IMG/VR virus record: IMGVR_UViG_3300023184_000038
Span: 32,001 to 96,000 of that record
Source: a virus
Length of the DNA: 64,000 nucleotides
Direction: 5' to 3' (one strand)
Below are positions 22,848-64,000 of the stretch, piece after piece (the first letter of the stretch is position 1; the number at the start of each line of letters is the position of its first letter). The notes beneath the pieces were generated by a model, which was given only the letters and a program-made list of their open reading frames with translations, had not been told where the DNA came from and searched no databases. The position numbers and the translations under genes were made by a program.

Positions 22848-25800
22848 ATGAACATGTTAGATTTAATGAACAAGATGACTGAACTTAGTGAAGCCAAGTC
22901 TACTAATAATGCGTTTACTGGAAATTGGAAAGATCCGGACGATGCTAAAGGCAAATCTATAATTCATAAAGGTAAGTATGGTACTGCGTATCAAGGTGAA
23001 CCTGATGACTTATCCACTGATGACACTAAAAAAACTAAAAAAGTTGCACCAGCAGACGGCGAGAAACGTGGCCGTGGACGACCAGCAAAAGGGTCAGATA
23101 GTTCAGGCAAAACAACATCACATGATACACAATCGTTATCTAATTTTATGATTGGTAATAAACCAAGTAAAGCAGTTGACAAATTACCAAAAACAAAAAG
23201 TAAAACGTTGAAAGATTGGTTTGAAAGATTAGATACTGCATTGAATGAAGATGGTCAATTTACTGTGAAACCGGCTGCACCCGGCGCATCAGATATTATG
23301 GGACCAGATGGTAAAAAAATAGGAACAGCATCGACCCCGGCTGCAGCTCAAGCAGTAAAAAACGGAGAAGTAAATTTTGATAAAGAACAAGGTATGGCGG
23401 AAGGCGACATTGGAAAACATAACAATGCTACAACAGGGTTTGCGGCGTTAGTTAAAAAACTTACACCTAAATATGGTGTAAAAGGTGCAATGCGTATTGC
23501 TGGTAGTCAAATGAAAAAAATTAAAGAAGCGGATATGCCACGCAATGATAGTGACATGGGTGCAGGTTTAGGCGCTGGTCGTAGTCAACAATTTGAAGGC
23601 ACAGAAGAAGATCCTGCTGGACCCGCAAGCCAAGCGGCCGATGAGTTAGCATATAAACTTCGCAATCCAAAATTTGATGCTGCATTGAAAAAAATAGAAG
23701 ACAAGTATAAAAATGATTCTATGGTTGTAAGAATGAATTCTCAAGGTGGCAAACAAGATCCAACAAGAATAGCGGGTATTCTGCAAGATCTTGCTCTGCA
23801 ACATAAAAGGGATCTAGAAGTGTTAGTGAATTACTACCAAAAATACGGCGGGCCAACTCCAGCATTAGAAAGCAAAAAAGGAGTAAATCCTTTTGCTAAG
23901 AAAAAACCAGACGATGACAAAGATGGAGTTCCTAATTGGGCCGACAAGAAGCCCGGTAAAGATGATAACGAAGGCAAAAAGAAAGGTGCAGCACCTATGA
24001 GTGAGGGTGGCAACCCTTTTGCCCCTATAGTGAATCCTATAATGAATTTAGTTAAAGGTGGTACTAAAGTCCTACCCAAACCTACTGGTCGACCGGGGAT
24101 GCCGCCTGCTCAAGCTGCAAGGACAGATGCTGTATCCCAAGCAAGACTTGCTAAAAGAAATGCTGATGACGAAATGTGGGCAGCAAGACAAGGCACCCAA
24201 CCTTCGGCCGCAAGTACAGATGCTGTATCCAAAGCAAGAAATGCTAAAAGAAATGCTGATGACGAAATGTGGGCAGCAAGACAAGGCACCCAACAACCAG
24301 CATTAGAAAGCAAAAAAGGAGTAAATCCTTTTGCTAAGAAAAAACCAGACGATGACAAAGATGGAGTTCCTAATTGGGCCGACAAGAAGCCCGGTAAAGA
24401 TGATAACGAAGGCAAAAAGAAAGGTGCAGCACCTAAGAAAGGTGTAAATCCTTTTGCTAAAAAGAAAATTTCTGAAGGTAAGGTAAAGGACATTGCAATA
24501 GATTTAGAAGAAATGACGCCGGCGGAATTTAAAAAGAAATATAAAATGACAAAGGCTGAAATGGAAAAAAATATGAATACTGACACCAACGCTAAGAAGA
24601 AAGATGTGACGGAAAACTCACATAATGTCACGGAGAAAATTATTGGACAACCTAAAATTGATAATATGGATAATGCTGGGCGCGGTGTATACAGTGGTGC
24701 CGAAAAAACAGCAACAACTAAACATCGTTTGGGGTCACATGTGTATGAAGTAACCACTGAGCAAGACGGTGATGGCGATCTTTATTATTTCATTTATGTG
24801 AATGGCAAACAAGTGTTTTACGCCACTAGTTCGGGAGTGTATGAGAACAAGTTAGGTAGCAGGATTAGTTCCGCTTTGTTGGATGAGCATAAAAAAGCCA
24901 CTGCACAGATGTTTGATTCGGATGAGGATGAAGATGAGGATGATTTTAGGGAAGGTGTGGCGGAAAGGCATCAAGCAGCTGGAAAACTTAAAAAGCAGAT
25001 GAGCAAAAGTATGATGGAAGGTGTTCGTCATTCAGATGCTGCACATTTACGAGGTAAGGCACATGCAATGGGCGGTGAAAATTATAACTGCCGATATACA
25101 CCGGGCACCAATGAAGCCAATATGTACCATATGGGATTCAAAGAAGGGCTTGATGAGTGCTATGGTCAAAGTCCAATGGAGAGTTATGTCGAGGAAGAAT
25201 TTACTCCGGAAGGAGAAGTTGAAAATATGCCACTAATGACTGATGAAAACTATATGATGGATGAAAGTCCTTTTAGTTGGGCTGCTAAAAATACTCCAAC
25301 AGGAAAACACTTTACATTAGCCGGACATGATTTTACAAAAACAGCGGCAGAAAGTATGAATCCGTTTATGGAATCTTTAAATAACCAATTAAATGCTTTA
25401 CTTAATGATGATATTAATGAAGGAATGACTGTATCAATTTCTAAAGGTCAACAAGGTACGCCGGATTCAGTTAGTGTGTCTGCTCAAGATTCTGAAGCAG
25501 AACAATTACTTTCTATTATTAAATCAGCGGGCTTAAGCTTGTTTGGTAGCGATAATGATTCAGGTGATGAACATTCTTCTGCTATGTCTATGCCGGGCGT
25601 TTCTATTGCTGACGGTGGTGCTGAACTTGATAGTAATATCAACGTGGTAAACGATCATGATGGCATGTTGGATTTAATTCGCAAAATGACAGGACAAGGT
25701 CCTGCTCAATCAGATGACAACGATTATGAAAGTGAAGAACACGAACACAGTCATGATGATGAAGAAGAGTGCGGCGATTGTGGTAATAGTCCATGTGATT

Positions 25801-26204
25801 GCGAGTCAATTGATGAAGCTGAAACACCTGATCAAGCAGAATTTATGGCTACTGAAGATAATGCGCCGGATTCTGGTGCTCAGGAAACAACCGCTGATGT
25901 AAATGCAGGGGCGGCTGAAGATGCAGCAATAGCAAAATCAGACCAACAAAATCCAACAGTAACAACAAATGAAGATGAAATGGAAGAAGACTTAAATGAA
26001 TCATATGCTAATAGTGCTGAAAATACATTTGAGGCTGATATAGAATTTATGACTAAGGTTATAACAGGTGGTTTGAATAAACAAAAATCAACCGGTCAAT
26101 CTACTATCCCAGTCGTGGCAAGTCAAAAAAATCGTTTGGGTGAGCCAATGCAAGAATCTACTGCATTACTACATGATTGGAAAAAATTAAGTGGTATTAC
26201 ATAA
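22848..26204 (+). CDS. Large modular prohead-core / internal polyprotein
   Basis: 1118 aa, low-complexity and charged; many (L/I/V/M)xE sites; EQGMAEG and EGVAER junctions; internal DNA duplications. Confidence 0.65.
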   Translation: MNMLDLMNKMTELSEAKSTNNAFTGNWKDPDDAKGKSIIHKGKYGTAYQGEPDDLSTDDTKKTKKVAPADGEKRGRGRPAKGSDSSGKTTSHDTQSLSNFMIGNKPSKAVDKLPKTKSKTLKDWFERLDTALNEDGQFTVKPAAPGASDIMGPDGKKIGTASTPAAAQAVKNGEVNFDKEQGMAEGDIGKHNNATTGFAALVKKLTPKYGVKGAMRIAGSQMKKIKEADMPRNDSDMGAGLGAGRSQQFEGTEEDPAGPASQAADELAYKLRNPKFDAALKKIEDKYKNDSMVVRMNSQGGKQDPTRIAGILQDLALQHKRDLEVLVNYYQKYGGPTPALESKKGVNPFAKKKPDDDKDGVPNWADKKPGKDDNEGKKKGAAPMSEGGNPFAPIVNPIMNLVKGGTKVLPKPTGRPGMPPAQAARTDAVSQARLAKRNADDEMWAARQGTQPSAASTDAVSKARNAKRNADDEMWAARQGTQQPALESKKGVNPFAKKKPDDDKDGVPNWADKKPGKDDNEGKKKGAAPKKGVNPFAKKKISEGKVKDIAIDLEEMTPAEFKKKYKMTKAEMEKNMNTDTNAKKKDVTENSHNVTEKIIGQPKIDNMDNAGRGVYSGAEKTATTKHRLGSHVYEVTTEQDGDGDLYYFIYVNGKQVFYATSSGVYENKLGSRISSALLDEHKKATAQMFDSDEDEDEDDFREGVAERHQAAGKLKKQMSKSMMEGVRHSDAAHLRGKAHAMGGENYNCRYTPGTNEANMYHMGFKEGLDECYGQSPMESYVEEEFTPEGEVENMPLMTDENYMMDESPFSWAAKNTPTGKHFTLAGHDFTKTAAESMNPFMESLNNQLNALLNDDINEGMTVSISKGQQGTPDSVSVSAQDSEAEQLLSIIKSAGLSLFGSDNDSGDEHSSAMSMPGVSIADGGAELDSNINVVNDHDGMLDLIRKMTGQGPAQSDDNDYESEEHEHSHDDEEECGDCGNSPCDCESIDEAETPDQAEFMATEDNAPDSGAQETTADVNAGAAEDAAIAKSDQQNPTVTTNEDEMEEDLNESYANSAENTFEADIEFMTKVITGGLNKQKSTGQSTIPVVASQKNRLGEPMQESTALLHDWKKLSGIT
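23859..24435 (+). repeat. 139-bp exact direct repeat (23859-23997 and 24297-24435) enclosing a 79-bp near-repeat pair (24123-24201 and 24216-24294)
   Basis: Direct comparison; the 139-bp repeat encodes PALESKKGVNPFAKKKPDDDKDGVPNWADKKPGKDDNEGKKKGAAP twice. Confidence 0.95.
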
Positions 26205-26216
26205 GTAATATACCTT

Positions 26217-26249
26217 AAAAAAATACCCGAGTTAATCGGGTATTTTTTT
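26217..26249. terminator. Bidirectional rho-independent terminator
   Basis: aaaaaaatacccga-gttaa-tcgggtattttttt between convergent genes. Confidence 0.85.
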
Positions 26250-26275
26250 GGAATTAGTAATTGTACTACTAAAAA

Positions 26276-27070
26276 TTACACATGATACATTTTTAATATA
26301 TCTCCTATGATTTTATGTCTGCGTATATCAGATGCATTAAATGTACATGACTGCATACCAGCAACAGGAGAGTTGGCTAACTTCTTCTGTAAGTCTATCA
26401 ACCCATTATCAGACTGCCGTCTATCTGCTTGATCGGTGTCACCTGTAACCACAATTTTGCTACCTTCGCCTATGCGAGTTAACAACATACACGCTTGCGA
26501 AATGGAGCAATTTTGTGCCTCATCCAGCACTATCCAACTGTGTTTAAAGTTCCTTCCTCGGCAAAAAGCCAATGGCGCAATTTCTATAATTTGTTCCTCC
26601 AACATGTGAGCAATTTCTTTAGTTGAATAATATTCCCGTAACACATCTAATAATGGTCTAGTCCAAGGTTCCATTTTTTGATTTAAATCGCCGGGCAAAA
26701 ATCCATGCTTTTCATCATCTACTGCAACAGCGGGTCTAGTTAAAATTATTTTATCACATTGTCTAGTTCTAAGTGATTTAATTGCTGCTTGCATTGCTAA
26801 ATATGTTTTTCCGGTTCCTGCAGGTCCGGAAACAACTACAATGTCTATATTATCATCTAATAATGCAATTATATATTTTTCTTGATTTATTGATTTTGGT
26901 ATCAATTCTATTACCTTAGTACTAAGTTTAGGTACTTTTTGCCCAGTGGCCTGGGTAAAATCTATAGTTTTAGATTCGTTTAAGTAGTAAGTATTAGTAT
27001 TTGACATTTTTTTTGTGTGAGAAAAGCGTGAATCATAATCACGAACAGCGCCAGTTTTTCGTTTGCTCAA
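26276..27070 (-). CDS. phoH: PhoH-family ATPase
   Basis: GPAGTGKT, LTRPAV, GFLPGDL..KM.PW, PLAFCRGR, LDEAQN, LTRIG, TGD..Q. Confidence 0.95.
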   Translation of the reverse strand: MSKRKTGAVRDYDSRFSHTKKMSNTNTYYLNESKTIDFTQATGQKVPKLSTKVIELIPKSINQEKYIIALLDDNIDIVVVSGPAGTGKTYLAMQAAIKSLRTRQCDKIILTRPAVAVDDEKHGFLPGDLNQKMEPWTRPLLDVLREYYSTKEIAHMLEEQIIEIAPLAFCRGRNFKHSWIVLDEAQNCSISQACMLLTRIGEGSKIVVTGDTDQADRRQSDNGLIDLQKKLANSPVAGMQSCTFNASDIRRHKIIGDILKMYHV

Positions 27071-27239
27071 TATATATTCTCCTTAAAAAGAGCGTGAATA
27101 CTCATAATATTCAATAGTATTTACAAATATTACCAATGTGTATAGTATTGCAGTATTTACTGCATACTTTATGATAAATATTATACTGGCTGGGATTACT
27201 TGATATTGTCACCTATATATAATTAATGATAAATACATA

Positions 27240-27851: not shown

Positions 27852-27854
27852 ATT

Positions 27855-35412: not shown

Positions 35413-37218
35413 ATGGATATTAAAGAATTAAATTCGTTTAAAGTGTCAGATGCTATTACATTTCATGACCATCTTAATCCTAGGCTGTTTCACGGGAATA
35501 GATTACAACCGGCCGTTGAAAAACAATTAAAAATTATTGCCCAAGATTTTTTACAAGAATTGGGAGTATATGATATTAATGTTAAAGATATAACAGTATC
35601 TGGCTCAAATGCAGCATATAGTTATACTAAGCATAGTGATTTAGATTTACATATATTAGTTGATTTATCTGAACAGCCAAATGATGAAGTATATAAAGAA
35701 TTATTTCATGCGAAAAAAACACTGTATAATGATAGCCATGACATTAAAGTTAATGGAATTCCAGTTGAATTGTATGTTCAAGATGTTGCATTTCCAGTAA
35801 TAAGTTTAGGTGAATATAGTGTATTAAACAATAAATGGATTAAAATTCCAAATAAGCGTAGAAGTAATTTTGACCATACCGATGCTAAAGCAAAGTATGA
35901 AAAATTAGCAAAATTAATAGAATATGCGTTACATGCTAACGATTTAAAACAAGTAAAAAATGTTTTAGAAACTATTAAAAGATACCGACAAACTGGATTA
36001 GAAAAGGGCGGAGAATTTGGCCCTGAAAATATTGTTTTCAAAGCATTGCGTAGCCAAGGCTTAATTACAAAATTATACGATTTAAGAGATAAATTACATA
36101 GTAAAAAATTAAGTTTAAGCGGGATGTATCAAGAAATTGATGAGGGTTTTGATCAACCATATCCAATAATATGGGAAAAGGGTTACCATGGAGATGTTGA
36201 TGCACTTGCTAAATTACCTGATGGTACTTATTTAAGCATTATGTTTAATAAGCAAGATAATGTTAAACCTGATGACAAGACATGGATGGTTGAATTTCAT
36301 AGAAACAACAGCCAAGAAGTAACAGGGGAGGGTGATGCACAAAAAGTATTTGCTACTGTATTGTCTGCCATTCAACAATTTATTATAAAATACAAACCAC
36401 TAAAAATATATTTCTCAGCAAGCAAAGAACCAGCGCCACTGAAACTCAGTAGCCCTGCTGGTGCTAAAGCAAACCCTGAAAGTCGTGCCAAGTTATATGA
36501 TAGATTAGTACTCCGTTATGCTAAATCTTGGGGATATAAGTTTTTCCGCGCTGACAATGGTTCTGATGTTATGTATCAATTTTCAAGAATACCAAAGCAA
36601 AAGACTGTGGGTGAAGATTACACTGGGCAATATGCTGCTGAAAAAACTCCAGTTGTAAGTCCTTATGCCGGCATCAAGGATAATCAATATCGTGGTGGGA
36701 TAAGTGAAGCAGCAGACATGGATTTTGAAGAAGGTGATTGTCCTATATTTGCCATTGCGTTACATCGTCTATCTAAGTTGCCATTAATGGCATTAGTTGA
36801 ATATGATGAAGAACTAGGTAGTACAGTATTAATCCATGCGTATGTAAAACTTGATGATAGATGGCGTCTGGATATCACTGGTGAAACAGATGTAGATTGG
36901 ATGTTACAAAAATATCCAAACAATGGTAACGCCGAAGAAATTGAGATTGGTGAGAAAGATTTGTTAGAATTGGGGTATGGAAAAAGCAAATGTCCTACTT
37001 TGCAACAGGTTCTACCCCATGCTAAAGAAGTTTTACAAAATATAAATGAAGCAAGTGGGTATATTCCAAGCGAAAAACAAAAGAATGATCCACGATTTAA
37101 GACGGCACTAACCGTAGATATTAGGCCAGATGCTATCAAAAAGAATGCAAAAGCATTTTATTGGAACACTAGTCGTGCCGGAATCCCTCCAACGGCAAAA
37201 GCAAACGGCAAAATATAA
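35413..37218 (+). CDS. Modular protein: N-terminal Pol-beta-superfamily nucleotidyltransferase plus several xxE-delimited modules
   Basis: SGSNA.Y.Y...SDLDLH, VELYVQD; junctions EIDE, TVGE, ISEA, INEA. Confidence 0.7.
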   Translation: MDIKELNSFKVSDAITFHDHLNPRLFHGNRLQPAVEKQLKIIAQDFLQELGVYDINVKDITVSGSNAAYSYTKHSDLDLHILVDLSEQPNDEVYKELFHAKKTLYNDSHDIKVNGIPVELYVQDVAFPVISLGEYSVLNNKWIKIPNKRRSNFDHTDAKAKYEKLAKLIEYALHANDLKQVKNVLETIKRYRQTGLEKGGEFGPENIVFKALRSQGLITKLYDLRDKLHSKKLSLSGMYQEIDEGFDQPYPIIWEKGYHGDVDALAKLPDGTYLSIMFNKQDNVKPDDKTWMVEFHRNNSQEVTGEGDAQKVFATVLSAIQQFIIKYKPLKIYFSASKEPAPLKLSSPAGAKANPESRAKLYDRLVLRYAKSWGYKFFRADNGSDVMYQFSRIPKQKTVGEDYTGQYAAEKTPVVSPYAGIKDNQYRGGISEAADMDFEEGDCPIFAIALHRLSKLPLMALVEYDEELGSTVLIHAYVKLDDRWRLDITGETDVDWMLQKYPNNGNAEEIEIGEKDLLELGYGKSKCPTLQQVLPHAKEVLQNINEASGYIPSEKQKNDPRFKTALTVDIRPDAIKKNAKAFYWNTSRAGIPPTAKANGKI

Positions 37219-40075: not shown

Positions 40076-40495
40076 ATGCGATTATATGAAATAGAACCTA
40101 GACCTAGTATAGAGAAACAATTTGACCTTATTGAGAGTATGGTTGAAAGTTTTGCAAAACATCATAATGTTGACAGTGAGATAATATGGGAAGATTTAGA
40201 ATCAGTTGATGATTATGAATTATTGGTTGAAGCCGCTGCCTGGAGAACCAGTAAAGGAAAAAGTAAAAAAGGTGGATTAAACGCTAAAGGTGTAGCAAGT
40301 TATCGTAGAGAAAATCCTGGCAGCAAGTTGCAAATGGCAGTTACCACTAAGCCAAGCAAATTAAAGCCAGGCTCAAAAGCAGCCAAACGTCGGAAATCAT
40401 TTTGTGCAAGAATGGGCGGCGTTAAAGGACCAATGAAGAAACCTAACGGTGATCCCACACGCAAAGCATTGGCTTTACGCAAATGGAACTGTTAA
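40076..40495 (+). CDS. Acidic leader plus basic C-terminal module (GGLNAKG..RRKSFCARM)
   Basis: MRLYEIE N-terminus; LVE junction before the basic module. Confidence 0.65.
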   Translation: MRLYEIEPRPSIEKQFDLIESMVESFAKHHNVDSEIIWEDLESVDDYELLVEAAAWRTSKGKSKKGGLNAKGVASYRRENPGSKLQMAVTTKPSKLKPGSKAAKRRKSFCARMGGVKGPMKKPNGDPTRKALALRKWNC

Positions 40496-41130
40496 TGAGA
40501 GCAAATGAAATAACAATAGATGACTCACAATCTCTTGTTGAATTTAGCAAGACTGATGCGGGTATACACAAAGAATTAATAGCCAAAGGATATAAACCTA
40601 TAGGCAAGCCGGGTGTGGATCAAACTGCATATATTGAACCGCGCAGCGGCATGATTCTCAAAATATTTGGGACTCGTCCAGGAAGTAAAACTTTTACAAA
40701 AGATCAAAAAATGTTTTTTATCTGGGCTAAATTTTGTATGGATAATTCATCTAACTTATTTTTACCACGATATTATGGGCATGAAAGTTTTAATTATAAC
40801 AATTCATTATATTTACAAATTCGTACTGAGAGATTGCAACACAATCCTAAATTAGGTCGTGCGGTTTCTAGTCTAGGCGAATATGCCAGTATTGGTTCTA
40901 TGGATGCACGTGGCACCTTGGATTATTTTGTAAAAAATCAACCTCAGCGAAGTTATTATGAAACAATAAAACAAACAATTGGCGAAGAAAATGTGATACC
41001 GTTGTTAAATACACTAGGCAACTTGTATAAAATTGCTAGTAAAAAGGGATATATGTGGGACCTGCACTCAGAAAATGTCATGACCAGAACCAATGGATGG
41101 CCAGTGATCAATGATCCTTGGACTATATAA
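40495..41130 (+). CDS. Protein-kinase-like domain with capsid-targeting-like N-terminus
   Basis: MRANEI; G.DQTAY, ILKIF, WDLHSENVM, PVINDPW; TAATG-coupled start at 40495. Confidence 0.7.
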   Translation: MRANEITIDDSQSLVEFSKTDAGIHKELIAKGYKPIGKPGVDQTAYIEPRSGMILKIFGTRPGSKTFTKDQKMFFIWAKFCMDNSSNLFLPRYYGHESFNYNNSLYLQIRTERLQHNPKLGRAVSSLGEYASIGSMDARGTLDYFVKNQPQRSYYETIKQTIGEENVIPLLNTLGNLYKIASKKGYMWDLHSENVMTRTNGWPVINDPWTI

Positions 41131-41133
41131 TAT

Positions 41134-42522
41134 ATGAGAGCAAAAGAATTTATTGTTGAAGCATTGACTCCAGAACAAACATCAAAACTGTTCCAACAGT
41201 TGGGTGTGAAATGGGATACTAATATTCATAACGCTATTTTTAACGGTAAATCACGAATATATATTCCAATGCCATCACAAATAGCAAACACTACTGTATC
41301 CCCAACACAACATAAAATTGAAAATACATTGTCTGACATTGGTTATCAAATAGCAGACTATGCTGCAGGGATAGCACAAAAGAAAAATGATCCAACTAGA
41401 AAAATTAAAATTGGTAAACTACTTACAGATAAATCATTACTACAAACATTTGCCAATGATCCGTACCGAGCCGCATCTACACAATCTAATGAGTTAGAGG
41501 TAGTGATATCTCGTGACCCAGTAGATATTGCTGGTATGAGTACTGACCGAGGTTGGACTAGTTGTATGAATCTAGACGGTGGAGAGAATAATAGATATGT
41601 ACCAACAGAAATACGGAACGGGGCAATTATTGCGTATTTAATTAGAAAGACTGATAAGAACATTGATAAGCCATTGGCACGAATATTGTTAAAACCTTAC
41701 TATTTTAAAAATCATATAATTTTAAATCCAGACAAAGTATACGGCACTGCTCCTGCATCATTTAACGAAGTAGTGAATGATTTTTGCAATAACGTTAATA
41801 GTAATAGTCCAGAAGGAGATTATAGACTACCCGGCGGTTGTTATCGAGATAGCGCAGAATATGTCATGCATCTTAAAGACTACAGTGATTTTAGTGGATT
41901 TACTGTTGCCAACCGAAAGATTATTGCCAACAACCCCAATAGCCCAATACAAGCATTAGTTAAGTTGGCCAAGGATGAAGATCCCGGGGTAAGAGAGATT
42001 GTAGCCAGTCGTGCAGCTTGTCCACTTGAAGTGTTAATTGAGTTGTCGACGGATAGCAACAGTACTGTAAGGTGGAGGGTGGGGTTGAATCAAAAAACAC
42101 CAAAAGACATATTAGTTAATTTAGCCAAGGATCAGGAGCCGGAGGTACGAGTAGGTGTAGCCGCTAACCGCCGAGCTTCAGATGAAGTGTTAGTTAGTTT
42201 AGCCAATGATCCAGAGGAAAATATTCGAGGAGAAGTGGCAAAAAATATCAATACTCCAATCAAAGTTTTGGTCCAGTTGAGCAAGGACCAAAACGTTTTG
42301 GTAAGATATGTGTTGGCTCGTAGTCCTAGTTGTCCAAGCAATATATTGTCTGAGTTGGCTAATGATGAAGTAGGAATGGTAAGAGCTGCTGTAGCCGGGA
42401 ACCGCAGTGCTCCGGGTGAAGTGTTAGCTAGGTTAGCAAACGATGCTTCTTGGAAGGTGAACGGCGTTGCAAAAGAAACGATTCACTGGATCACAACACA
42501 AGAGAAAAATAACAATTTATGA
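41134..42522 (+). CDS. MRAKEFIVE protein with conserved central domain and C-terminal LRV/HEAT-like repeats
   Basis: MSTDRGWTSCM domain; 24-aa repeats L..LA.D....VR..VA.N...P. Confidence 0.7.
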   Translation: MRAKEFIVEALTPEQTSKLFQQLGVKWDTNIHNAIFNGKSRIYIPMPSQIANTTVSPTQHKIENTLSDIGYQIADYAAGIAQKKNDPTRKIKIGKLLTDKSLLQTFANDPYRAASTQSNELEVVISRDPVDIAGMSTDRGWTSCMNLDGGENNRYVPTEIRNGAIIAYLIRKTDKNIDKPLARILLKPYYFKNHIILNPDKVYGTAPASFNEVVNDFCNNVNSNSPEGDYRLPGGCYRDSAEYVMHLKDYSDFSGFTVANRKIIANNPNSPIQALVKLAKDEDPGVREIVASRAACPLEVLIELSTDSNSTVRWRVGLNQKTPKDILVNLAKDQEPEVRVGVAANRRASDEVLVSLANDPEENIRGEVAKNINTPIKVLVQLSKDQNVLVRYVLARSPSCPSNILSELANDEVGMVRAAVAGNRSAPGEVLARLANDASWKVNGVAKETIHWITTQEKNNNL

Positions 42523-43679
42523 GAGCAAAAGAATTTATTGTTGAAACTGCTATGATGGGCAAGATTGCAGACTCGGGCAAAATTATTCGCATCTTGAAGA
42601 AAGCACACACCGTGCCATTCAGTGATGAAAAAAACTGGTTGCTGGTAGATACTGATCCTGGCAAAGGCAACAGTGGACTGGGTATCAAATGGATTCCGGC
42701 CGACACAAGATTTGAATGGGTAAGACCTTATAAAGATAGTGTAGATGAAAACTTGTCTCCGCAGACCATACACAAATTGGCAGACCACAAAGGTGTAAAA
42801 TGGGATGACGAACCCAGTTTCCTTCAACTTACCAAACGATTAACAGGCAAAGAACATTTGGATGACTTAGATCAAGCAGGGTTGAACAAAGTTAAAAAAC
42901 ATTTGGATGGGTTGCAAGGGGTGGCGGAAGGCGGTGCCGAAACAAGTTGGTCCAATGACACCGATACAATTACACTACAGGATATTTTAGAATTAACCAA
43001 ACATATTAAACAAATAAATTTACCAATTAACGATAATCTAAAGAGTAAACTACTTCATTGGGAAGGTAACCCAGAAGAAATAGAAAGAGTTAATCAAGTA
43101 ACGGTGTCTAACCAATTTCCTATTTTAATTATGGTGGATGAGCAAGGTCAAATAGCCTGGATACTCGATGGCAACCATAGACTACACAAGGCAATACAAT
43201 CACAAGCAAAAACAATACCTGCTAAACTTATTAGACCCAGCAACCTTGATGATAAAGCAAAGAAAATATTTAATATAAAAGAGCAAGGTGTGGCGGAAGG
43301 CTCCGAGAACAATAATACAACAGCACAAAAAATATTCTTTGCTCGTAGTAATAAAACACCCAAAGGATGGAGTTATGACCATGTTGGATTTATAACTCAA
43401 GATGGAAAACAAATTCAAATGAGTGGGCATAAAGGCAATGATGTATATGTCACTAACGATGTGACTGATGATCCGGAGTTTCCTAAACAAAATATCAAAA
43501 TTGTATCATTATCAAAACCAGTATCGGTGCCTACAACTAACTCAGTAGGAGCAGAAAATTGTGGAACATTTGTGGCAAATGTATTACAAGCCAATGGTAT
43601 AAAAGGTATTGATACACAAAAAATATATAGTGTGTTCAAAAAACCTCAAGAGCAAGGTGTGGCGGAAGGCTTAAAATAA
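42519..43679 (+). CDS. MRAKEFIVE polyprotein: small modules, ParB/Srx-like module and permuted papain-like (H..C) module, joined by QGVAEG
   Basis: ILDGNHRL; DHVGF...NCGTFV; three QGVAEG linkers. Confidence 0.7.
   Translation: MRAKEFIVETAMMGKIADSGKIIRILKKAHTVPFSDEKNWLLVDTDPGKGNSGLGIKWIPADTRFEWVRPYKDSVDENLSPQTIHKLADHKGVKWDDEPSFLQLTKRLTGKEHLDDLDQAGLNKVKKHLDGLQGVAEGGAETSWSNDTDTITLQDILELTKHIKQINLPINDNLKSKLLHWEGNPEEIERVNQVTVSNQFPILIMVDEQGQIAWILDGNHRLHKAIQSQAKTIPAKLIRPSNLDDKAKKIFNIKEQGVAEGSENNNTTAQKIFFARSNKTPKGWSYDHVGFITQDGKQIQMSGHKGNDVYVTNDVTDDPEFPKQNIKIVSLSKPVSVPTTNSVGAENCGTFVANVLQANGIKGIDTQKIYSVFKKPQEQGVAEGLK
42915..43670 (+). repeat. Three copies of the module-junction word (GAG)CAAGGTGTGGCGGAAGGC at 42915-42932, 43281-43301 and 43650-43670
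   Basis: Direct reading; 43281-43301 and 43650-43670 are identical 21-mers. Confidence 0.95.
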
Positions 43680-43680
43680 A

Positions 43681-44574
43681 ATGAGAGCAACTGAATTTAT
43701 TACCGAGGAACACGAGCCAACCCGAATCAAACTTGGTAACAACGATGCCGCTAAGGCTTGGATTGACCGAGTCTACACAAAATATCCACATACCATGCAA
43801 AACAACCATGTCATGGTTTGGGGGTCAGGCGATGACCAACAGTTTGCTATGTTTGAACTGATACCTAGTTTTAGTAAACGCGGTGCAGTTGAAGTCAAAT
43901 GGTTTCAAGCATATCCTTTACGACAAGGCGTTGGATCACGTGCCATGCAAGAATTGCAGGCTATGGCCCGCGAAGATGGCATTGCTCTTACTTTATTCCC
44001 CTGGGACAAAGGACAAGTAAGTCAAAGTAAACTAACCAAGTTCTATCGAGGTCAAGGGTTTAAGCCCACCGTGAAGGGCAGCAAAAGCATGGCATGGACA
44101 CCAGAACTAAATGAAGCCGAACTCAGCATAGATGTACCTAACGAAGAATGGTTACAGGAAAAGATAGACTATGCCAAACGCAAAGGCCGCAATAGTTTTG
44201 GCGTGCCTTATATGGGCAGCACCACTGCTTATGTTCAAGGAACACCGTTAAAAGCTCGTGTGATGAGATTGGCTTCTTTGCCGGGCATGAGGAACGAACA
44301 AACCAATGTGCGTCAAAATGACCTAAAGTGGTTAATGGATTACATGGACCGAACAGGTAAGTTACCACCTATGAAAACCAGTTCCGACGATGAGTACATG
44401 CCCTACATCATGGTAGCCTACAATGGTGAAGCATGGGTCAACGAAGGTAATCACCGTATCATGGCCGCATATAGATTAAACTGGCAGACCATGCCCATAC
44501 AACTTGCTTACTTTGATGGCGGAGAACGTGTGGAAAGTGGTGCCATGTATCCAGGCAAGATTGGACTAGCATGA
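43681..44574 (+). CDS. MRATEFITE polyprotein: GNAT acetyltransferase plus ParB/Srx-like module
   Basis: RQGVGSRAM and LTKFYRGQGF (GNAT motifs); LNE junction; NEGNHRI. Confidence 0.72.
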   Translation: MRATEFITEEHEPTRIKLGNNDAAKAWIDRVYTKYPHTMQNNHVMVWGSGDDQQFAMFELIPSFSKRGAVEVKWFQAYPLRQGVGSRAMQELQAMAREDGIALTLFPWDKGQVSQSKLTKFYRGQGFKPTVKGSKSMAWTPELNEAELSIDVPNEEWLQEKIDYAKRKGRNSFGVPYMGSTTAYVQGTPLKARVMRLASLPGMRNEQTNVRQNDLKWLMDYMDRTGKLPPMKTSSDDEYMPYIMVAYNGEAWVNEGNHRIMAAYRLNWQTMPIQLAYFDGGERVESGAMYPGKIGLA

Positions 44575-46070
44575 GAGCAAACGAATTCATAACCGAAATA
44601 TTTCAACCTGGTAAGAAAAACTGGGAATGGATACGCAGAGATAACACATACGCCAGTGCTCGTTTTAGTGTTGGCGATAGAACTTATACTTGGCAGGCGC
44701 ATGGTGCGGAATCCGATAATGATGGCCCTACTCATTGGATTCTTGAATTTAGAATTGAACGAGAATTAGCCGATCCTGACAGGTTAGATGTTTGGGGTAA
44801 GACTGGTACAGGTAACTCAGCAGAAGTAATGTCAACCGCAGTTGATATTACCCGTGAATTCATTAAAGAGTATGGTGATAAAATATCAGAATTAACTTTT
44901 GATGCCAAAGAAGATTCTCGTATTGGATTGTATGCTAAGATGATTGCACGTTTACTACCTGGGTGGGAATTGAATCAAACATACAATAAAAACTTTGGTA
45001 TGGAGTTTCGTTTAACTAACCCTAAATCAAATGAATTTATCACAGAGAGTTCGCAACAAACTACCTTACGACAACTGTACGGTGGTAACTATCCAGATCG
45101 TGATGAAGAATTTTGGGACTATGTGTCATCTAGTGAATTTGATCAACCATTGACAGTTGAAACAATGGCAAAACATAAAGTATTGATTATGTTACTCAGT
45201 CAATATCGTGCAGAACATATTGATGACATAACTGATATGTTAGATGATGATCAACAAGCAATTGTACAATCATATGTTAATGATCCGGCACTAGCAAGCA
45301 AAATAATAGTTGTTGCTAACAATAGAATCATTGATGGTAATCATCGTGCATTAGCTGCTGCAATCAAAGGTGTACCTATTAATTATGTTGATTTATCTGA
45401 ATTAGAAGAAGAACCGATAGATGAAGCAGAAACAGACACACCAAACGCTAGAGAGATATCAAAACAACTAAGAGCGGTAGGTTATTCACATGTAGGGTCT
45501 GGTGCTGATGCTACTGTTTGGGCAAAAGATGATAGTCATGTAATTAAGATATTGATGCCAGAAGATGCAGGTAGTAAAGCAGAACAAGTATTTCGTAAGT
45601 TTTATGAATTTTCAATGAGCCGGCAAGATTTGGCGTGTGTTCCTAGATTCAATGAAGTAACCACGATTGATATTAACGGTAAAGATTATACTCAGATTGA
45701 GATGGAGAAATTATCTTCTATTCCCAAAGGTTCGTTTGTTGAGGGTTTAATTTGGTTCCTGAGTGATTACACTAGTTCTCCTGAATCATGGGAAACAATA
45801 GAGCGTGAACTAGCAGACCCAAACACATGGAAAAATTACATCCCACAATATGCTAATGCATTTGCTAAAGTTTGGCAAAGTCTACTAGAAAATCCTGCAA
45901 GTAAAAAAACATATGCTATGTACAAACAGCTATATACTGTAATGCAAATATTATATAACACAGGCAGAATCAACAAATTTGGATGGGATTTGCATACAGC
46001 AAATGTCATGCTAAGACAGAACGGACAACCGGTAATAATTGATCCGTGGTTTAGTGAAGGTACATCCTAA
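44571..46070 (+). CDS. MRANEFITE polyprotein: unknown module, ParB/Srx-like module and protein-kinase-like module
   Basis: Internal SNEFITE; IIDGNHRA; GSGADATVW, VIKI, WDLHTANVM, PVIIDPW. Confidence 0.72.
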   Translation: MRANEFITEIFQPGKKNWEWIRRDNTYASARFSVGDRTYTWQAHGAESDNDGPTHWILEFRIERELADPDRLDVWGKTGTGNSAEVMSTAVDITREFIKEYGDKISELTFDAKEDSRIGLYAKMIARLLPGWELNQTYNKNFGMEFRLTNPKSNEFITESSQQTTLRQLYGGNYPDRDEEFWDYVSSSEFDQPLTVETMAKHKVLIMLLSQYRAEHIDDITDMLDDDQQAIVQSYVNDPALASKIIVVANNRIIDGNHRALAAAIKGVPINYVDLSELEEEPIDEAETDTPNAREISKQLRAVGYSHVGSGADATVWAKDDSHVIKILMPEDAGSKAEQVFRKFYEFSMSRQDLACVPRFNEVTTIDINGKDYTQIEMEKLSSIPKGSFVEGLIWFLSDYTSSPESWETIERELADPNTWKNYIPQYANAFAKVWQSLLENPASKKTYAMYKQLYTVMQILYNTGRINKFGWDLHTANVMLRQNGQPVIIDPWFSEGTS

Positions 46071-46088
46071 TATATATGACTTATAAGA

Positions 46089-46179
46089 ACACCCTTAGGA
46101 CCAGTACTAGTTACTGTAAGTGTGAGGCGGCTGCTGCCTATATAACCCAATTCGCTACTGGGAAGTATAAAGTGAGCAT
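46089..46179 (+). ncRNA. Candidate structured intergenic RNA (multi-stem, possible pseudoknot)
   Basis: GC-enriched intergenic stretch; stems cagta/tactg, aggcgg/ctgcct and ccca/tggg; loop tcgct is complementary to downstream agtga. Strand not established. Confidence 0.45.
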
Positions 46180-46197
46180 TAATTTGATAAATACATA

Positions 46198-46770
46198 ATG
46201 CGTTATACTGAGTTTATTATTGAATCTCCTGCAACTGAATTGGCTAAAAAATTGCCATCTTTGGATAAACATGATTATGATACTATTGATAGATTAATGT
46301 CAACTATAGCAAAAAGACATCGTATTACTGGTAAAGCATTGCACGATTTGTTTATTAAAAAATATCATCGGTCACCGGATGATTGGATTAAAAGCAAATT
46401 GGATGAAAATACATCATTGGATATTCAAGACGAAGTGGATAAGTTTTGTAATTGGGCTTGTCAAAAATTAAAAATTAAAACTAAACCGTACATAGAATTA
46501 AGTATGGATACTGAAGAAGCACAAAATAATCATCATACCGGAGGTCATGTCCCCGGTGAAAATAATATATGGGTTTATGCAAAAAATCGTAATTTAGTAG
46601 ATATTTTACGCACGGTGTTTCATGAATTGGTTCACGTACGGCAAGGTGAATTAAATATGATTACCCCAGGATCTAGTTATCCGGGTAGCCCAATTGAAGC
46701 CTTAGCAGATTTAATGGCCGGAAAATATATTAAAATTTACGGCAAACAACATCATAATATTTTTCAATAA
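46198..46770 (+). CDS. MRYTEFIIE protein with HEXXH zincin metallopeptidase-like module
   Basis: LRTVFHELVHVRQ...E..A; LDE junction. Confidence 0.7.
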   Translation: MRYTEFIIESPATELAKKLPSLDKHDYDTIDRLMSTIAKRHRITGKALHDLFIKKYHRSPDDWIKSKLDENTSLDIQDEVDKFCNWACQKLKIKTKPYIELSMDTEEAQNNHHTGGHVPGENNIWVYAKNRNLVDILRTVFHELVHVRQGELNMITPGSSYPGSPIEALADLMAGKYIKIYGKQHHNIFQ

Positions 46771-58815: not shown

Positions 58816-58851
58816 GTCAAAAAATGTTTATATCATTAAAGGAATAGTACA

Positions 58852-59700: not shown

Positions 59701-59945
59701 TGCCCTCAATTGATTGGACTACACAATCAGCTAGTGACTATCATTTCAAACAAAGAACTGTGGGTAAACAATTAAAGTTTACTCTAATACCTAGACTATG
59801 CCATATAACAAAGCGTAGAATATGGCTAGAGTATGCATATTGTGTTACTGCAATGTACAGAAGCGGTGATATTAACTTTGATTATGAAAATCGTTGGTAT
59901 AGTAAAGATGAATATTTAATAGCAAGATTAAGGGATTTAATATGA
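59700..59945 (+). CDS. Small hypothetical protein
   Basis: ORF; probable coupled ATG at 59700. Confidence 0.55.
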   Translation: MPSIDWTTQSASDYHFKQRTVGKQLKFTLIPRLCHITKRRIWLEYAYCVTAMYRSGDINFDYENRWYSKDEYLIARLRDLI

Positions 59946-60121
59946 AGTTTGAAATGCGTTGGCTTGTGGTTGAGGCGCCATCTGGCCCTGAAAAGATATT
60001 GCAATATCGTTATGAAAGAGAAATAACAGATTACAGTATAGAAAACCCAAGAACAGGATCCTTTGTTAAAAGAAATGAGTTAACTGATTGGATTACTGTT
60101 ACAACAGTAGATGAGGTATAA
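59942..60121 (+). CDS. 59-aa hypothetical protein (MKFEMRWLVVE...ILQYR...DWITV)
   Basis: Read directly; ATGA overlap with the upstream gene; fills the gap. Confidence 0.55.
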   Translation: MKFEMRWLVVEAPSGPEKILQYRYEREITDYSIENPRTGSFVKRNELTDWITVTTVDEV

Positions 60122-60122
60122 A

Positions 60123-61484
60123 ATGCGAACATATAATAAACGAATAGCATTTCTAATTAGTGACCAGCATTTTATTACGCATGGTGGGATAGGGCAGTTT
60201 GCTAAAGGTTTTACTGAATTAGGAGACCGCATCAATTGGAAAGTTGACATTATCTTAGACAAAGAACCAACAAACGATTTATCTATACTAGTTAAATCAT
60301 TGGGTGCAAATATCATATATACAGATTCTGGTCTACGCTATTCTGACCATACTGCTACGTTTGCTTTTAAAGATAGTATTAATTTTGAAAAAATGGTTAA
60401 TTTCAGAAAAAGCATTATGCTTGCGTTAGAAACTAATATTTATGATATGATTATTTGTAACACGCAAGAAGCAATGAGTGCAGCATATTCTATGGGGTTA
60501 GGAAAATATATTCCAGTAGTATTTTACACACATTCGTATAGTATGGTTTTTAGAGATGAGCAAGATTTTAGTGATGTTTGTATAGATGAATATCATAACT
60601 TTTTCAATAAGCATATGGAACTATCTCATAGTTTTGTTGGAACTCAAAGTCAAAAGAATGTTGATGAGATGACTAAGTATGGTGCAAAGAATGTATCACT
60701 ATTGCGTATGCCATTAAGTGAACGAGAATTGTTAGTACGCAATGATAATCCGCGCAAAGGTGTATTGTTTATTGGACGATGGGAAGAACGAAAAAATCCA
60801 GAAGCATATATTCGTGTTATGAAAGAATGTAAATTGCCTTGCAGAGTAATGACCAATAAAACAGGTGCTAAAAAATTTGAAAAAGCATTTGCTGATAATA
60901 ACATCACAGATTATGAAATCAAAATAAGTATTATTGGCAAAGAAAAAGTAGATTTTATTAAAAGTTGTAGTGTATTTTTTATGCCAGCATTAGGAGAAAA
61001 CTATCCGTTTGCGTTTAGTGAATGTTTGGGACATATGCCATGTGTTGTGTTAGATAATCAAGATTGGTCTAATAATTTTGACGAAAAATATTTTTATAAA
61101 GAAAAATTAAACAATGTATCAATGTTAATTCAACGATTATACAATACTACAAATTACTACGATACCGGAGCATTAGAATATATTAAATTACTAGATGACG
61201 ATACCGCTATAGGCTGGATAAAATTTTTAGATAAGTTTGTTTCTAAAAAAAGTAATACTAATTCAGCAAAAATAAATTCGACAGAAACAGTATGTTATCA
61301 AGACTATATTAAAGAATTAAACAGAGGGCATTTAGCCCGTGAAGATATTGAAAGTGTATTGGCAAATCGTCATAAATTTATTATCAATGTATATACAGAT
61401 GATAATACGTATTTAAGTAAAGATCCAAAATTTAAGCCAATAGAAGAACAGTCACCTAGTGTGTCATTATTTGAATGGGTATGA
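60123..61484 (+). CDS. GT-B (GT4-like) glycosyltransferase
   Basis: HGGIGQF, LFIGRWEERKNP, ENYPFAFSE. Confidence 0.8.
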   Translation: MRTYNKRIAFLISDQHFITHGGIGQFAKGFTELGDRINWKVDIILDKEPTNDLSILVKSLGANIIYTDSGLRYSDHTATFAFKDSINFEKMVNFRKSIMLALETNIYDMIICNTQEAMSAAYSMGLGKYIPVVFYTHSYSMVFRDEQDFSDVCIDEYHNFFNKHMELSHSFVGTQSQKNVDEMTKYGAKNVSLLRMPLSERELLVRNDNPRKGVLFIGRWEERKNPEAYIRVMKECKLPCRVMTNKTGAKKFEKAFADNNITDYEIKISIIGKEKVDFIKSCSVFFMPALGENYPFAFSECLGHMPCVVLDNQDWSNNFDEKYFYKEKLNNVSMLIQRLYNTTNYYDTGALEYIKLLDDDTAIGWIKFLDKFVSKKSNTNSAKINSTETVCYQDYIKELNRGHLAREDIESVLANRHKFIINVYTDDNTYLSKDPKFKPIEEQSPSVSLFEWV

Positions 61485-62317
61485 TGAAAAAAGTATTAAT
61501 AACAGGTAATTCAGGTTATATCGGTAGTCATCTTTCCAAGATGTTAGCAGATTCTTATGAAGTATATGGGTTAGATATTACCCTTCCACAGACAGATCGG
61601 CTTAAAGATTGGTATAATATTGATATTCGTAAATTATTTACTATTGACCAAGAATTTGATGCAGTAATACATTTAGCAGCCTTAGTTAATGTAGGTGAAA
61701 GTGAGCAGCAACCCATAAGTTATTATATTACCAATTTGAATGGGACGATGAATGTCATCAATAAGATTAAGACAAAGAATTTTATTTTTGCAAGTACTGG
61801 CGCAGCAGCGGGATGTGAGAGTGCATATGGTATTAGTAAACGTGCTGCGGAAGATGTGGTGCGTGAATATTGCACTATACATAATCCCAAAGATTACACA
61901 ATATTTAGGTTCTATAACGTAATTGGTAGTGATGGTTTTTTGCCAACTAATCCAGACGGGTTGATGTATAATTTAATGAAATCAAAAGAAAAGGGCGAAT
62001 TTACTATTTTTGGGAATGACTATGATACCCGAGATGGAACTTGCATACGTGATTATGTACATGTTAATGAGATATGTGAAGCATTAGGTAGTGCTATTGA
62101 GAGGCCAAGTAATCAAATAGAATGTTTAGGGCATGGAGTAGGTTATACTGTTGCCGAGATAGTTAATACGTTCAAAAAAGTAAACAATATACCTAATATT
62201 AATTTACTTACTAAGATAGGTCCAAGAAGAAAGGGTGACTTAGCAGTATCTGTATTAGATAATGTGTCACCCTATATGAAGAATCTTTATACTTTAGAGC
62301 AGTTACTTAAAGTTTAA
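61481..62317 (+). CDS. NAD-dependent epimerase (UDP-glucose 4-epimerase-like SDR)
   Basis: ITGNSGYIGSH, HLAA...VGES, YGISK, FRFYNV.G, DGTCIRDYVHV, RRKGD. Confidence 0.88.
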   Translation: MMKKVLITGNSGYIGSHLSKMLADSYEVYGLDITLPQTDRLKDWYNIDIRKLFTIDQEFDAVIHLAALVNVGESEQQPISYYITNLNGTMNVINKIKTKNFIFASTGAAAGCESAYGISKRAAEDVVREYCTIHNPKDYTIFRFYNVIGSDGFLPTNPDGLMYNLMKSKEKGEFTIFGNDYDTRDGTCIRDYVHVNEICEALGSAIERPSNQIECLGHGVGYTVAEIVNTFKKVNNIPNINLLTKIGPRRKGDLAVSVLDNVSPYMKNLYTLEQLLKV

Positions 62318-64000
62318 GAAGCCCATTTTTTATAGGGCTTTGGTAATTTATTTTCCGCCACACCTTGCTTTCTAATCTTAACATTACCCCTCATTCGGTC
62401 AACACTTTCAGGAGTAGGAATATTTAGGCTACGGAACTGAGCTGTGCCTTGTGCAGCAACTGGTCCTCCATGTAAACTATCACGCTCTTCACCTTTGCTG
62501 TTACGCCACTTACCGTCAGTGCCTTGTGTCAGTGGTTCTTTTGTTTGATAGTCTCGTGGAACAAACGGTGCATTTGCACTAGGCTCTGGACTTGGGCTAG
62601 GTGATGAAGTAGATGCTGCTTTCCAGCCAGCCGCGTTCATTGCGTCTACAGTTTGATCACCGGGCTGTTTGCCGTCAGCTTTTCCATTTACAATTCGCAA
62701 ATACGAAGCCATTCCATACTGTGTACCAGAGCCTGCTGGCTTTTCAATCCAGTATGTTTTGCTTTGTGTATCAAGAACAGCTGGATAATTCTGACCATTA
62801 TAGTTAGTAGTTGTTAAAGTAAATCCATTACCTAAATCTTTTTCATTTGCCGGCGGTCCTCCAGCAGTGGCACCAGTATTACTAAAATCATTTATATTAG
62901 CTCCTGGTGGCAATCGTGGACGAATTGGTGCTTCAGCAGAGGCACCAGTATTACTAAAATCATTTATATTAGCTCCTGGTGGCAATCGTGGACGAATTGG
63001 TGCTTCATCTTCTTCTGTCACACCTTGCTTCTTATATACATCCTTGAATGCTTTATTAAAAATGTCAGTAGCTTGCTTAGTTGTTTTTTTAGCAGTGGTT
63101 GGCGTGGCAGTATGTTGTGGGTCAGAGTCGCTATAGTGGTCTCTTGAACCATATGTGCTATGACTTCTTGTGCCATCAGATTTCATACGTCCTTTGGGTT
63201 CTTGACTATGCATTTCCGCCACATCAGATTCTGGTTTCTTCTGCCCGTACATGTCTTTTCCATCTTTATCATAATGAGTTGGGGGAAAATCATACGCTTT
63301 ATTATGAATATCTTGCCTGGCCCATCTATTCATCTCACGCGGCCGGGGAATTAATTTTACCGTAGGCGTATGCTTATCTTTCAATGCCCAGTTATTCATT
63401 CCTTCCGCCACACCTTGCTCTAAACGATTCTGCGCTTTAGCAAATCCTGCAACACTGCGGTTGGCTTTTTCTGGACTACGCTTTGTTGGGTCTGCTTTAT
63501 GTTTCATAGAGTCGGAACTTACTTTTTGTTGATAACTCTTTAGTGCATTATTGCTAACTTCCGCCACACCTTGCTCGGCCATTCCTAACTTACGCATTAC
63601 CGCCGGAGAAGCGATTTTGTTTTTTATACAATTGGGATATTTTTTCCCAAACATAGTTTTCATGCCTTCTTTGTGATATCCTTTCCAGCAAGCTTCGTCT
63701 AAACTTTTCTGTGAGTGATCTCCGTGTGTTTCACACATACCACAGTCTTCACAGACCATTTCCATCTCAATGCTTTCGTTGTGTTTCTTTTTACCAGCGC
63801 AATGAGCCTTTTGACTAAATCCTTTGGGATGTGAGCAATTGATACTGCTTTTATATTTTTGACTCCATCCCTCATTATAGTTATCATACTTATTACGAAC
63901 AGCATCTAACTTTTTTTCACTAGCACCTTCACGTCCTGCTTTGGCTAATGCCTTCATACCATTTTTGCCATACTTTTCATTGCCCTTGGCAGCACGACTC
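62314..64000 (-). CDS. Modular polyprotein with QGVAE junctions; 5'-truncated at the window end
   Basis: The frame is open to base 64000; EQGVAEV, EQGVAEG, SDVAEM, KQGVTEE and KQGVAEN junctions; small Cys modules WSQKYK..INC..PKGFSQKAHC and CWKGY...PNC. Confidence 0.75.
   Translation of the reverse strand, partial: SRAAKGNEKYGKNGMKALAKAGREGASEKKLDAVRNKYDNYNEGWSQKYKSSINCSHPKGFSQKAHCAGKKKHNESIEMEMVCEDCGMCETHGDHSQKSLDEACWKGYHKEGMKTMFGKKYPNCIKNKIASPAVMRKLGMAEQGVAEVSNNALKSYQQKVSSDSMKHKADPTKRSPEKANRSVAGFAKAQNRLEQGVAEGMNNWALKDKHTPTVKLIPRPREMNRWARQDIHNKAYDFPPTHYDKDGKDMYGQKKPESDVAEMHSQEPKGRMKSDGTRSHSTYGSRDHYSDSDPQHTATPTTAKKTTKQATDIFNKAFKDVYKKQGVTEEDEAPIRPRLPPGANINDFSNTGASAEAPIRPRLPPGANINDFSNTGATAGGPPANEKDLGNGFTLTTTNYNGQNYPAVLDTQSKTYWIEKPAGSGTQYGMASYLRIVNGKADGKQPGDQTVDAMNAAGWKAASTSSPSPSPEPSANAPFVPRDYQTKEPLTQGTDGKWRNSKGEERDSLHGGPVAAQGTAQFRSLNIPTPESVDRMRGNVKIRKQGVAENKLPKPYKKWAS
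62353..63576 (-). repeat. Five copies of the junction word on the minus strand (62353-62369, 63013-63029, 63214-63222, 63401-63420, 63559-63576)
   Basis: Seen on the plus strand as ttccgccacaccttgct and variants. Confidence 0.9.
62869..63007 (-). repeat. 67-bp exact repeat with 72-bp period
   Basis: 62869-62935 equals 62941-63007; encodes EAPIRPRLPPGANINDFSNTGA twice. Confidence 0.95.

Follow-up and report, generated by a model that had tools for sequence, protein, structure and literature searches.

The window analysed here, 64,000 bp in length, comprises bases 32001-96000 of the 143,665-bp linear IMG/VR viral contig IMGVR_UViG_3300023184_000038. Our subject is a short DNA word that recurs in frame at the boundaries between modules of a few of its proteins. 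CheckV estimates the contig (35.9% GC) to be 41% complete. Its tail sheath shares ~47% identity with its counterparts in jumbo myophages (PA5oct and Atu_ph07 among them), the genes for tube, head closure and family-B DNA polymerase resemble those of T4, and it most likely comes from a jumbo myophage that is related to T4 and has not been cultured. The locus had no megablast match among GenBank phages, a tblastn search for cultured relatives with the polyprotein P0001 (below) gave only weak matches to Ralstonia jumbo phages, and full-text literature searches found the motif in no phage paper. The word-bearing genes of the window and their junctions are as follows.

22848-26204, plus strand: gene for a 1118-amino-acid word-bearing protein with two junctions, directly after head-completion and tail genes
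23385-23405, plus strand: variant junction word GAACAAGGTATGGCGGAAGGC (EQGMAEG), two mismatches
24954-24965, plus strand: exact 12-nt core GGTGTGGCGGAA (EGVAER)
42519-43679, plus strand: gene for the 386-amino-acid three-junction polyprotein P0001 (leader, N-module, cassette B, cassette A)
42912-42932, plus strand: junction word 1 (LQGVAEG), exact core; left breakpoint of the swap in locus L023
42930-43298, plus strand: cassette B, 123 amino acids, ParB/Srx-like
43281-43301, plus strand: junction word 2 (EQGVAEG), exact 21-mer
43299-43667, plus strand: cassette A, 123 amino acids, permuted papain-like (His precedes the ..NC.. motif)
43650-43670, plus strand: junction word 3, exact 21-mer, with the stop three codons on; right breakpoint of the L023 swap
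62314-64000, minus strand: gene for a 581-amino-acid word-bearing protein with five junctions, extending to window-equivalent 64059
62350-62370, minus strand: junction word (KQGVAEN), core 62353-62361
63010-63030, minus strand: variant junction (KQGVTEE), GTGACAGAA at 63013-63021
63211-63231, minus strand: junction with the exact 9-nt core only (SDVAEM), core 63214-63222
63400-63420, minus strand: junction word (EQGVAEG), one mismatch
63556-63576, minus strand: junction word (EQGVAEV), two mismatches

The 9-mer GTGGCGGAA occurs eight times in the window, where shuffled sequences lead one to expect 0.21 copies and none of 100 shuffles reached eight. The whole contig holds nine copies in four genes, the ninth lying outside the window in the fourth gene (contig 99566-99577, minus strand), and each is an in-frame junction read as V-A-E. 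A search with the 21-mer, allowing up to three mismatches, returned 23385, 42912, 43281, 43650, 63400 (minus) and 63556 (minus). The sequences that flank the contig copies are unrelated to each other. At junctions VAE is encoded GTG GCG GAA in nine of nine contig sites and in none of the other eight VAE tripeptides, which use GTA or GTT with GCA, GCT or GCC, apart from one GTG GCT; contig-wide, GTG makes up 13.9% of Val codons and GCG 7.5% of Ala codons. A preliminary description of the window had listed eight exact copies of the 9-mer, confined to three genes and lying between unrelated blocks, together with the variants EQGMAEG and QGVTEE, and had remarked on the choice of GTG and GCG against genome usage. 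All of these are borne out, with every window copy in frame and the core of the second variant at 63013-63021 on the minus strand. The blocks in 42519-43679, put at ~370 bp in that description, are set by words spaced exactly 369 bp apart and encode 123 amino acids each.

The same description took the conservation to act on DNA, and relatives of the locus strongly support this. They were collected by a search with P0001 seeded with module-body peptide patterns, not the word, and comprise 25 loci from 23 metagenomes with GC contents of 35-49%. These loci contain 63 copies of the 9-mer, each on the gene strand, and GVAE is written GGTGTGGCGGAA at 62 of 75 sites. In a set of 72 unique contexts, GTG encodes Val at 58 of 61 junctions and GCG encodes Ala at 62 of 66, as against 19.8% and 6.1% in the bodies of the same genes; the Gly after the word is GGC in 38 of 46 junctions, as against 25%. 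Binomial tails for these biases range from 1e-10 to 1e-70, with relatedness ignored. The codon before the word ends in G whatever the amino acid (GAG 24, AAG 12, CAG 7), and at the Gln codon of the word first-position changes from Q to E or K (at least 43) are commoner than synonymous third-position changes. The codon bias at junctions and this excess of Q-to-E/K changes together indicate that the constraint acts on nucleotides. The consensus is G-CAA-GGT-GTG-GCG-GAA-GGC.

Could such conservation serve the mRNA, as a ribosome pause that assists folding at domain boundaries or as the binding site of an RNA regulator? A viral-wide 17-mer scan, which returned at least 120 stretches in contigs of up to 343 kb, is consistent with this, since the word lies on the coding strand and in frame, with 271 of the 276 cores among the matches listed falling in the longest reading frame. 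The rare codons GTG GCG and the purine-rich, Shine-Dalgarno-like runs (AGGTG/GGAAGG) point the same way. However, the common codons CAA, GGT and GAA are kept equally strongly, and the word is the same in contigs of 35-49% GC despite their differing codon rarity. A function in the transcript also leaves unexplained the homology breakpoints at the word described below, and the in-place decay of the word in diverged copies speaks against constant purifying selection on the transcript. We regard a function in the mRNA as highly improbable. An internal start or ribosome-binding site was considered separately and rejected, there being no in-frame start codon at a usable distance past AGGTG. As a negative control we looked for a host or prophage source of the word. 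Across 596 Gb of bacterial genomes we found the 17-mer one copy at a time and about as often as expected by chance; most of these copies belong to GC-rich taxa (median 65% GC), and one example lies in a PheT-like motif. Such a source was rejected.

It is at the word that modules part company. When word-bearing proteins were cut at their junctions and the resulting pieces clustered, cassettes A and B of P0001 were found in at least 12 different architectures (for example P/B/A in this phage, x/A/C381, C383/B/E159, N1068/A/x/x and G301/A/D727), and all 12 members of cassette A have different neighbour contexts. In DNA alignments with 60-nt flanks (eight distinct copies of A, four of B), mean column identity is ~0.95 inside the cassette and 0.2-0.4 immediately beyond the core, on both sides and for both cassettes. 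This places the crossover zone in the 12-15 nt core. The upstream GAG-CAA moves with the upstream module and the GGC with the downstream module, and blastn matches to the contig start and stop exactly at words. In locus L023, both flanks of which are 94-98% identical to those of the window, unrelated modules of 186 and 67 amino acids stand in place of B and A, and the divergence starts within word 1 and stops within word 3. Comparison of these copies shows the word to be, at the level of sequence, the exact point of module exchange between genes and between distantly related phages. The preliminary description had predicted that module breakpoints in relatives fall on the word; the alignments, the blastn matches and the L023 swap agree with that prediction.

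The exchange is recent, wide and crosses loci. Cassette DNA is 93-99.5% identical (up to 99.7% for cassette B) between phages whose backbone genes (DNA polymerase, Clp-like ATPase) are 64-73% identical, and cassettes of ~36% GC sit within contigs of 44-49% GC, which argues for recent import. A Cys/His-rich module (..SINCSHPKGFSQKAHCAGKKK.., 63620-64002, minus strand) near the N terminus of the 581-amino-acid protein adjoins cassette A or B in L003, L004, L009, L011, L016 and L022; since in this phage it lies 20 kb away from them and on the other strand, shuffling crosses loci. In a larger set of 164 proteins, with up to 10 junctions per protein, we counted 594 modules in 415 families; the median internal module has 80 amino acids, and all members of multi-member families have different neighbour contexts. 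A HMMER search of 1.84 billion representatives found 573 clusters that share single P0001 modules, at variable positions. Assembly chimeras were rejected as a source of these architectures because the same word-bounded cassettes were recovered from 23 separate metagenome assemblies, in differing surroundings. The gene at 35413-37218 has neither word nor cassette in the window, and its orthologue in L014 (7116-10568) and L003 (3229-5982) has ~300 extra residues that include word-cassette-word, the cassette being A in L014 and a different 123-amino-acid cassette in L003. We rejected this gene as a clean "empty site" because the outer boundaries of the ~300-residue difference are not at words.

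An alternative explanation for the identity of the word is that it is a protease or linker site only, without a part in forming the joints, and that its DNA is uniform because the cassettes and their ends descend from a recent common ancestor. The cassettes with intact words are indeed young, as their 93-99.7% identity indicates, and older copies have a decayed word: cassette bodies at least 93% identical have 0-2 mismatches in the flanking 15-mers, and three copies with bodies ~91-92.7% identical have 3-13, with [VM]-x-E mostly kept. In a distant clade, moreover, a PLDxPMLxE junction is synonymously free, unlike QGVAEG, although this rests on two copies in one gene (L150:43-1350, P0131; n=2). 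Nonetheless, hundreds of unrelated module families are bordered by one and the same word, which therefore was not inherited with any one cassette. Identity falls to random directly at the core, past which the sequences of 12 contexts are unrelated, and joints at random positions would give variable linkers, not constant 369-bp units. Furthermore, the protease evidently accepts LAE, LNE and VNE, so that cleavage alone does not demand QGVAEG or its codons. Common descent on its own is thus rather improbable as the cause. We read the pattern as two layers, a long-lived peptide requirement and a DNA identity that is kept only in the actively exchanging pool, since crossovers would depend on it and restore it. 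As a separate observation, the ParB-like module of that other clade, in P0131 and other distant homologues of module B, is delimited by a conserved junction peptide of its own, (V)PLD(L/F/I)PM(L/V)(N/D)E.

What would the peptide requirement be? The word most likely encodes a cut site for a prohead protease, judging from sequence. In T4, leaders direct proteins to the scaffolding core and gp21 takes the leaders off (PMC10229621, PMC9026906). A Peptidase_S77 of the gp21 type is encoded in two large relatives of the contig, and the propeptide of their capsid protein ends in ...QLLAE/S. Where homologues of module B have diverged to 50-65% identity, the corresponding boundary reads L-N-E, V-N-E or L-D-E, and intermediate copies have QDVAE, NSVTE, LRMAE and similar peptides. 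Diverged junctions thus keep hydrophobic-x-Glu, and the peptide feature outlives the DNA word. In an AlphaFold2 model of P0001, whose input was a MAFFT alignment of module-sharing proteins that is poor because their architectures differ, confidence (predicted local distance difference test, pLDDT) is below 50 in the leader (residues 1-9) and at residues 71-97, 133-148 and 252-263. These segments separate three or more confidently folded units; words 1 and 2 lie within 133-148 and 252-263, and the C-terminal block with word 3 averages ~50. The protease half of our proposal is therefore indirectly supported, by the S77 genes of relatives, by leaders (below), by [LIVM]-x-E at diverged junctions and by the location of words in linkers. 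As an additional observation, the low-confidence linker at residues 71-97 (window 42730-42760) bears a V-D-E site. Many database proteins match residues 1-80 of P0001 only, which indicates that the N-module consists of two units joined without a word.

P0001 belongs to an array of genes whose N termini resemble T4 capsid-targeting leaders.

40483-46770, plus strand: gene array with capsid-targeting-like leaders (MRAKEFIVE twice, MRATEFITE, MRANEFITE, MRYTEFIIE, MRANEITID)
41134-42522, plus strand: whole-gene cassette for an LRV/HEAT-repeat protein, replaced in locus L025

A further leader is MKINDILE, and two neighbouring leaders of the array are identical across 27 bp. Within the first 16 residues, [LIVMF]-x-E is present in 81 of 111 complete carrier N termini and in 36 of 109 background proteins. 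In L025, where the backbone is 91-96% identical, a different gene of 258 amino acids replaces the body of 41134-42522, and the breakpoints are the two leader-coding sequences ATGAGAGC...GAATTT (L025:7170-8050). The leader-coding sequence would thus play for whole genes the joining role that the word plays for modules. We also observed that the leader gene at 44571-46070 weakly resembles a T7-type protein kinase PHROG (1.5e-9) and, in Pfam, Kinase-PolyVal (0.069).

The functions of the cargo, those of cassettes A and B included, are leads only. Structure matches in the ESM Atlas relate P0001 residues 138-260 to the N-terminal ParB/Srx fold (template modelling (TM) score 0.65) and residues 268-383 to permuted papain-like proteins of the YaeF/LRAT/NlpC-P60 type (TM 0.56-0.69). 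The labels "ParB-like" and "H..C hydrolase" of the preliminary description are retained in this sense, as leads from structure; Pfam lends them no significant match. Pfam searches with the three word-bearing proteins and with single modules gave nothing significant, ten cargo families matched domains of unknown function (DUFs) only, and the P0001 model, searched whole with its several domains, had no Foldseek match in the PDB at E<=0.001. Two repeats were also seen: a ~40-amino-acid block (KKGVNPFAKKKPDDDKDGVPNWADKK...) is present twice in the 1118-amino-acid protein, the C-terminal half of which is very acidic, and a 22-amino-acid unit (EAPIRPRLPPGANINDFSNTGA) is present twice in the 581-amino-acid protein.

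We propose that the word has a dual role, as an in-frame protease site and as a short-homology joint for cassettes of packaged proteins, and we give this reading a probability of about 0.65. Putative internal (ejection) proteins would carry a T4-like capsid-targeting leader, and many of them would be strings of autonomous modules, with the in-frame word, QGVAE/G, at each module boundary. In the protein, hydrophobic-x-Glu in an exposed linker would be cut by a gp21-type protease, freeing the modules within the capsid. In the DNA, the 12-15 nt core would provide the short homology at which cassettes are joined, so that they could change position or locus, or pass to a co-infecting phage of very different backbone, without loss of frame. 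The agent would be general phage recombination, annealing or template switching, and not a site-specific recombinase. Word identity would be kept because each successful transfer regenerates a perfect word; in copies outside the exchanging pool the word would decay while [VM]-x-E mostly stays.

The position of the joint is shown by comparison; the joining mechanism we infer. No match to tyrosine (PF00589) or serine (PF00239) recombinases was found in G000-G003, four incomplete contigs totalling ~900 kb, and a RecA/UvsX-like gene is present in two of the four. The word, which is non-palindromic and purine-rich, gave no hairpin when folded. A short-homology crossover fits the lack of a tyrosine or serine recombinase better than an integron mechanism does. 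The preliminary description had spoken of "integron-like" shuffling, and the outcome it envisaged is what we see, whereas the mechanism is not supported, given ~900 kb without a tyrosine or serine recombinase match and a word that forms no hairpin site. For T4-type recombination, homologous patches of <50 bp are cited in PMC2839356.

Several points weigh against the dual role. Cleavage, virion location and injection of the carrier proteins we infer from sequence; protease and capsid genes were seen only in relatives, neither a gp21 protease gene nor a gp23 capsid gene being present on this 41%-complete contig. Some architectural differences end away from words, as in the orthologue of 35413-37218, and many boundaries in distant homologues are without the motif. 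The decay trend is based on three to four copies, and the viral-wide set was chosen by the word itself and includes some chance matches (e.g. L103). Finally, the 12-21 nt of shared core are few for T4-type homologous recombination to work efficiently, so that a helper factor may be involved.

This last point leads to the alternative that dedicated site-specific machinery mobilises the cassettes, perhaps as circles, by means of a homing-type endonuclease, an unrecognised recombinase or a structure formed by the word. The core is short for exchange driven by homology; the 19-nt consensus, exactly kept even at a base free of amino-acid constraint, resembles a protein recognition site; and the core fits the motif (GG-N1-3)x4. 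Related contigs also carry HNH and GIY-YIG endonuclease genes, in one case directly upstream of a polyprotein gene. Yet the ~900 kb contained neither tyrosine nor serine recombinase, no nuclease was found co-occurring with the word, and the scanned cargo families are DUFs, not nucleases. The word is non-palindromic, and the two-tetrad quadruplex that it might form is predicted to be marginal. We consider dedicated machinery unlikely. Similarly doubtful is a "domain integron", in which in-frame domain cassettes would excise and integrate at the word, either by a nuclease or recombinase of their own or by recombination that starts from a structure. As the word would double as a protease site, each insertion would release a free effector for packaging. 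A G-quadruplex at the core, with a predicted stability of only -1.4 kcal/mol, was set aside as a lead only. Two endonuclease genes may be recorded here in their own right. A SegE-like GIY-YIG homing endonuclease gene lies directly 5ʹ of a polyprotein gene with a ParB-like module (ENA contig with P0121), and an HNH-type endonuclease-like open reading frame (...HHHILPRSLGG...; L028:8371-9126, minus strand) adjoins the major capsid gene of G001.

How does this short-homology arrangement compare with known systems? The internal proteins (IPs) of T4 and their loci are the subject of Mullaney and Black 1996 and Repoila et al. 1994. The carriers described here share with T4 IPs a short N-terminal leader ending in hydrophobic-x-Glu and highly diverse cargo in few loci; a gp21-type protease is encoded in relatives of the contig. 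According to PMC9026906, PMC3012670 and PMC2839356, IPI-III and their variants have a capsid targeting sequence and belong to hyperplastic IP loci. Whole genes are replaced between relatives with breaks at the leader in both cases (here L025; for IP loci PMC2839356). However, T4 IPs have one cargo per gene, whereas here up to 10 cargos are concatenated in one frame, and their presumed shuffling elements are promoter, stem-loop and leader, whereas here the element is an internal word conserved as DNA. Promoter(early)-stem-loop elements (PeSLs; Arbiol et al. 2010, PMC2839356) are likewise short repeats that flank single cargo units, and indel or replacement differences between related phages stop at the repeat, as we found for the word. 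No dedicated recombinase is known for them and general phage recombination is invoked. In contrast to the word, PeSLs are intergenic, combine an early promoter with a stem-loop, and have demonstrated mini-circles; the word, of 12-21 nt, is part of a reading frame, comes with neither promoter nor hairpin, and doubles as a putative peptide site.

Integrons (IntI, attI, attC) lead to a similar outcome, arrays in which a recurring site delimits exchangeable cassettes with one function each. Unlike them, the four incomplete contigs yielded neither IntI nor another tyrosine recombinase, the word is no imperfect palindrome or hairpin, and the cassettes are in-frame protein modules, not promoterless genes. 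In polymorphic toxins, CdiA-CT follows a VENN motif and Rhs tips follow DPxGL, the Rhs motif being also a cleavage site. As set out in PMC3482391, a conserved junction motif there too marks a variable module that is replaced by cassette recombination; those systems occur in bacteria, exchange the C-terminal tip only and have an immunity gene per toxin, whereas the modules here are internal to polyproteins. Polyvalent proteins (Iyer et al. 2017, PMC5512222) string together 2-15 effector-type domains (ParB-like, kinase, papain-like), and are predicted to accompany the DNA into the host and to be split into units by processing. P0001 likewise joins several unrelated, putatively effector-type domains in one phage polypeptide, and a gene near it gives the weak Kinase-PolyVal match noted above. 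For polyvalent proteins, in contrast, processing is assigned to an embedded MPTase peptidase and a DNA-level junction is not described; Pfam found no MPTase (Zn-peptidase) domain in the three word-bearing proteins and their neighbours, the only proteins scanned for it, and in its place we propose a prohead-protease-type site that recurs at each junction. The inner-body and ejection proteins of phiKZ and SPN3US (PMC9026906, PMC10052503) are cut at multiple sites after Glu by a T4-related prohead protease. Their S/A-X-E sites are, unlike the word, degenerate tripeptides, for which nucleotide conservation and a role in module exchange are unreported.

What is the significance of a junction of this kind? 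Whole genes (T4 IP loci, PeSLs) and toxin tips are already known to shuffle at short conserved junctions. In the present case the junction falls within the reading frame, its synonymous sites are conserved across many metagenomes, and it connects hundreds of unrelated modules. A module placed between two words stays in frame, and it would be released in the capsid if the word is indeed cut by the protease. The 415 module families, mostly without a Pfam match, constitute a pool of candidate anti-host effectors, and the cassettes show that genes have passed very recently between phages whose backbones are 64-73% identical. The word thus offers a testable rule for how giant phages may build and renew an arsenal of putative packaged proteins, and suggests a design principle by which several cargo proteins could be loaded into T4-type capsids.

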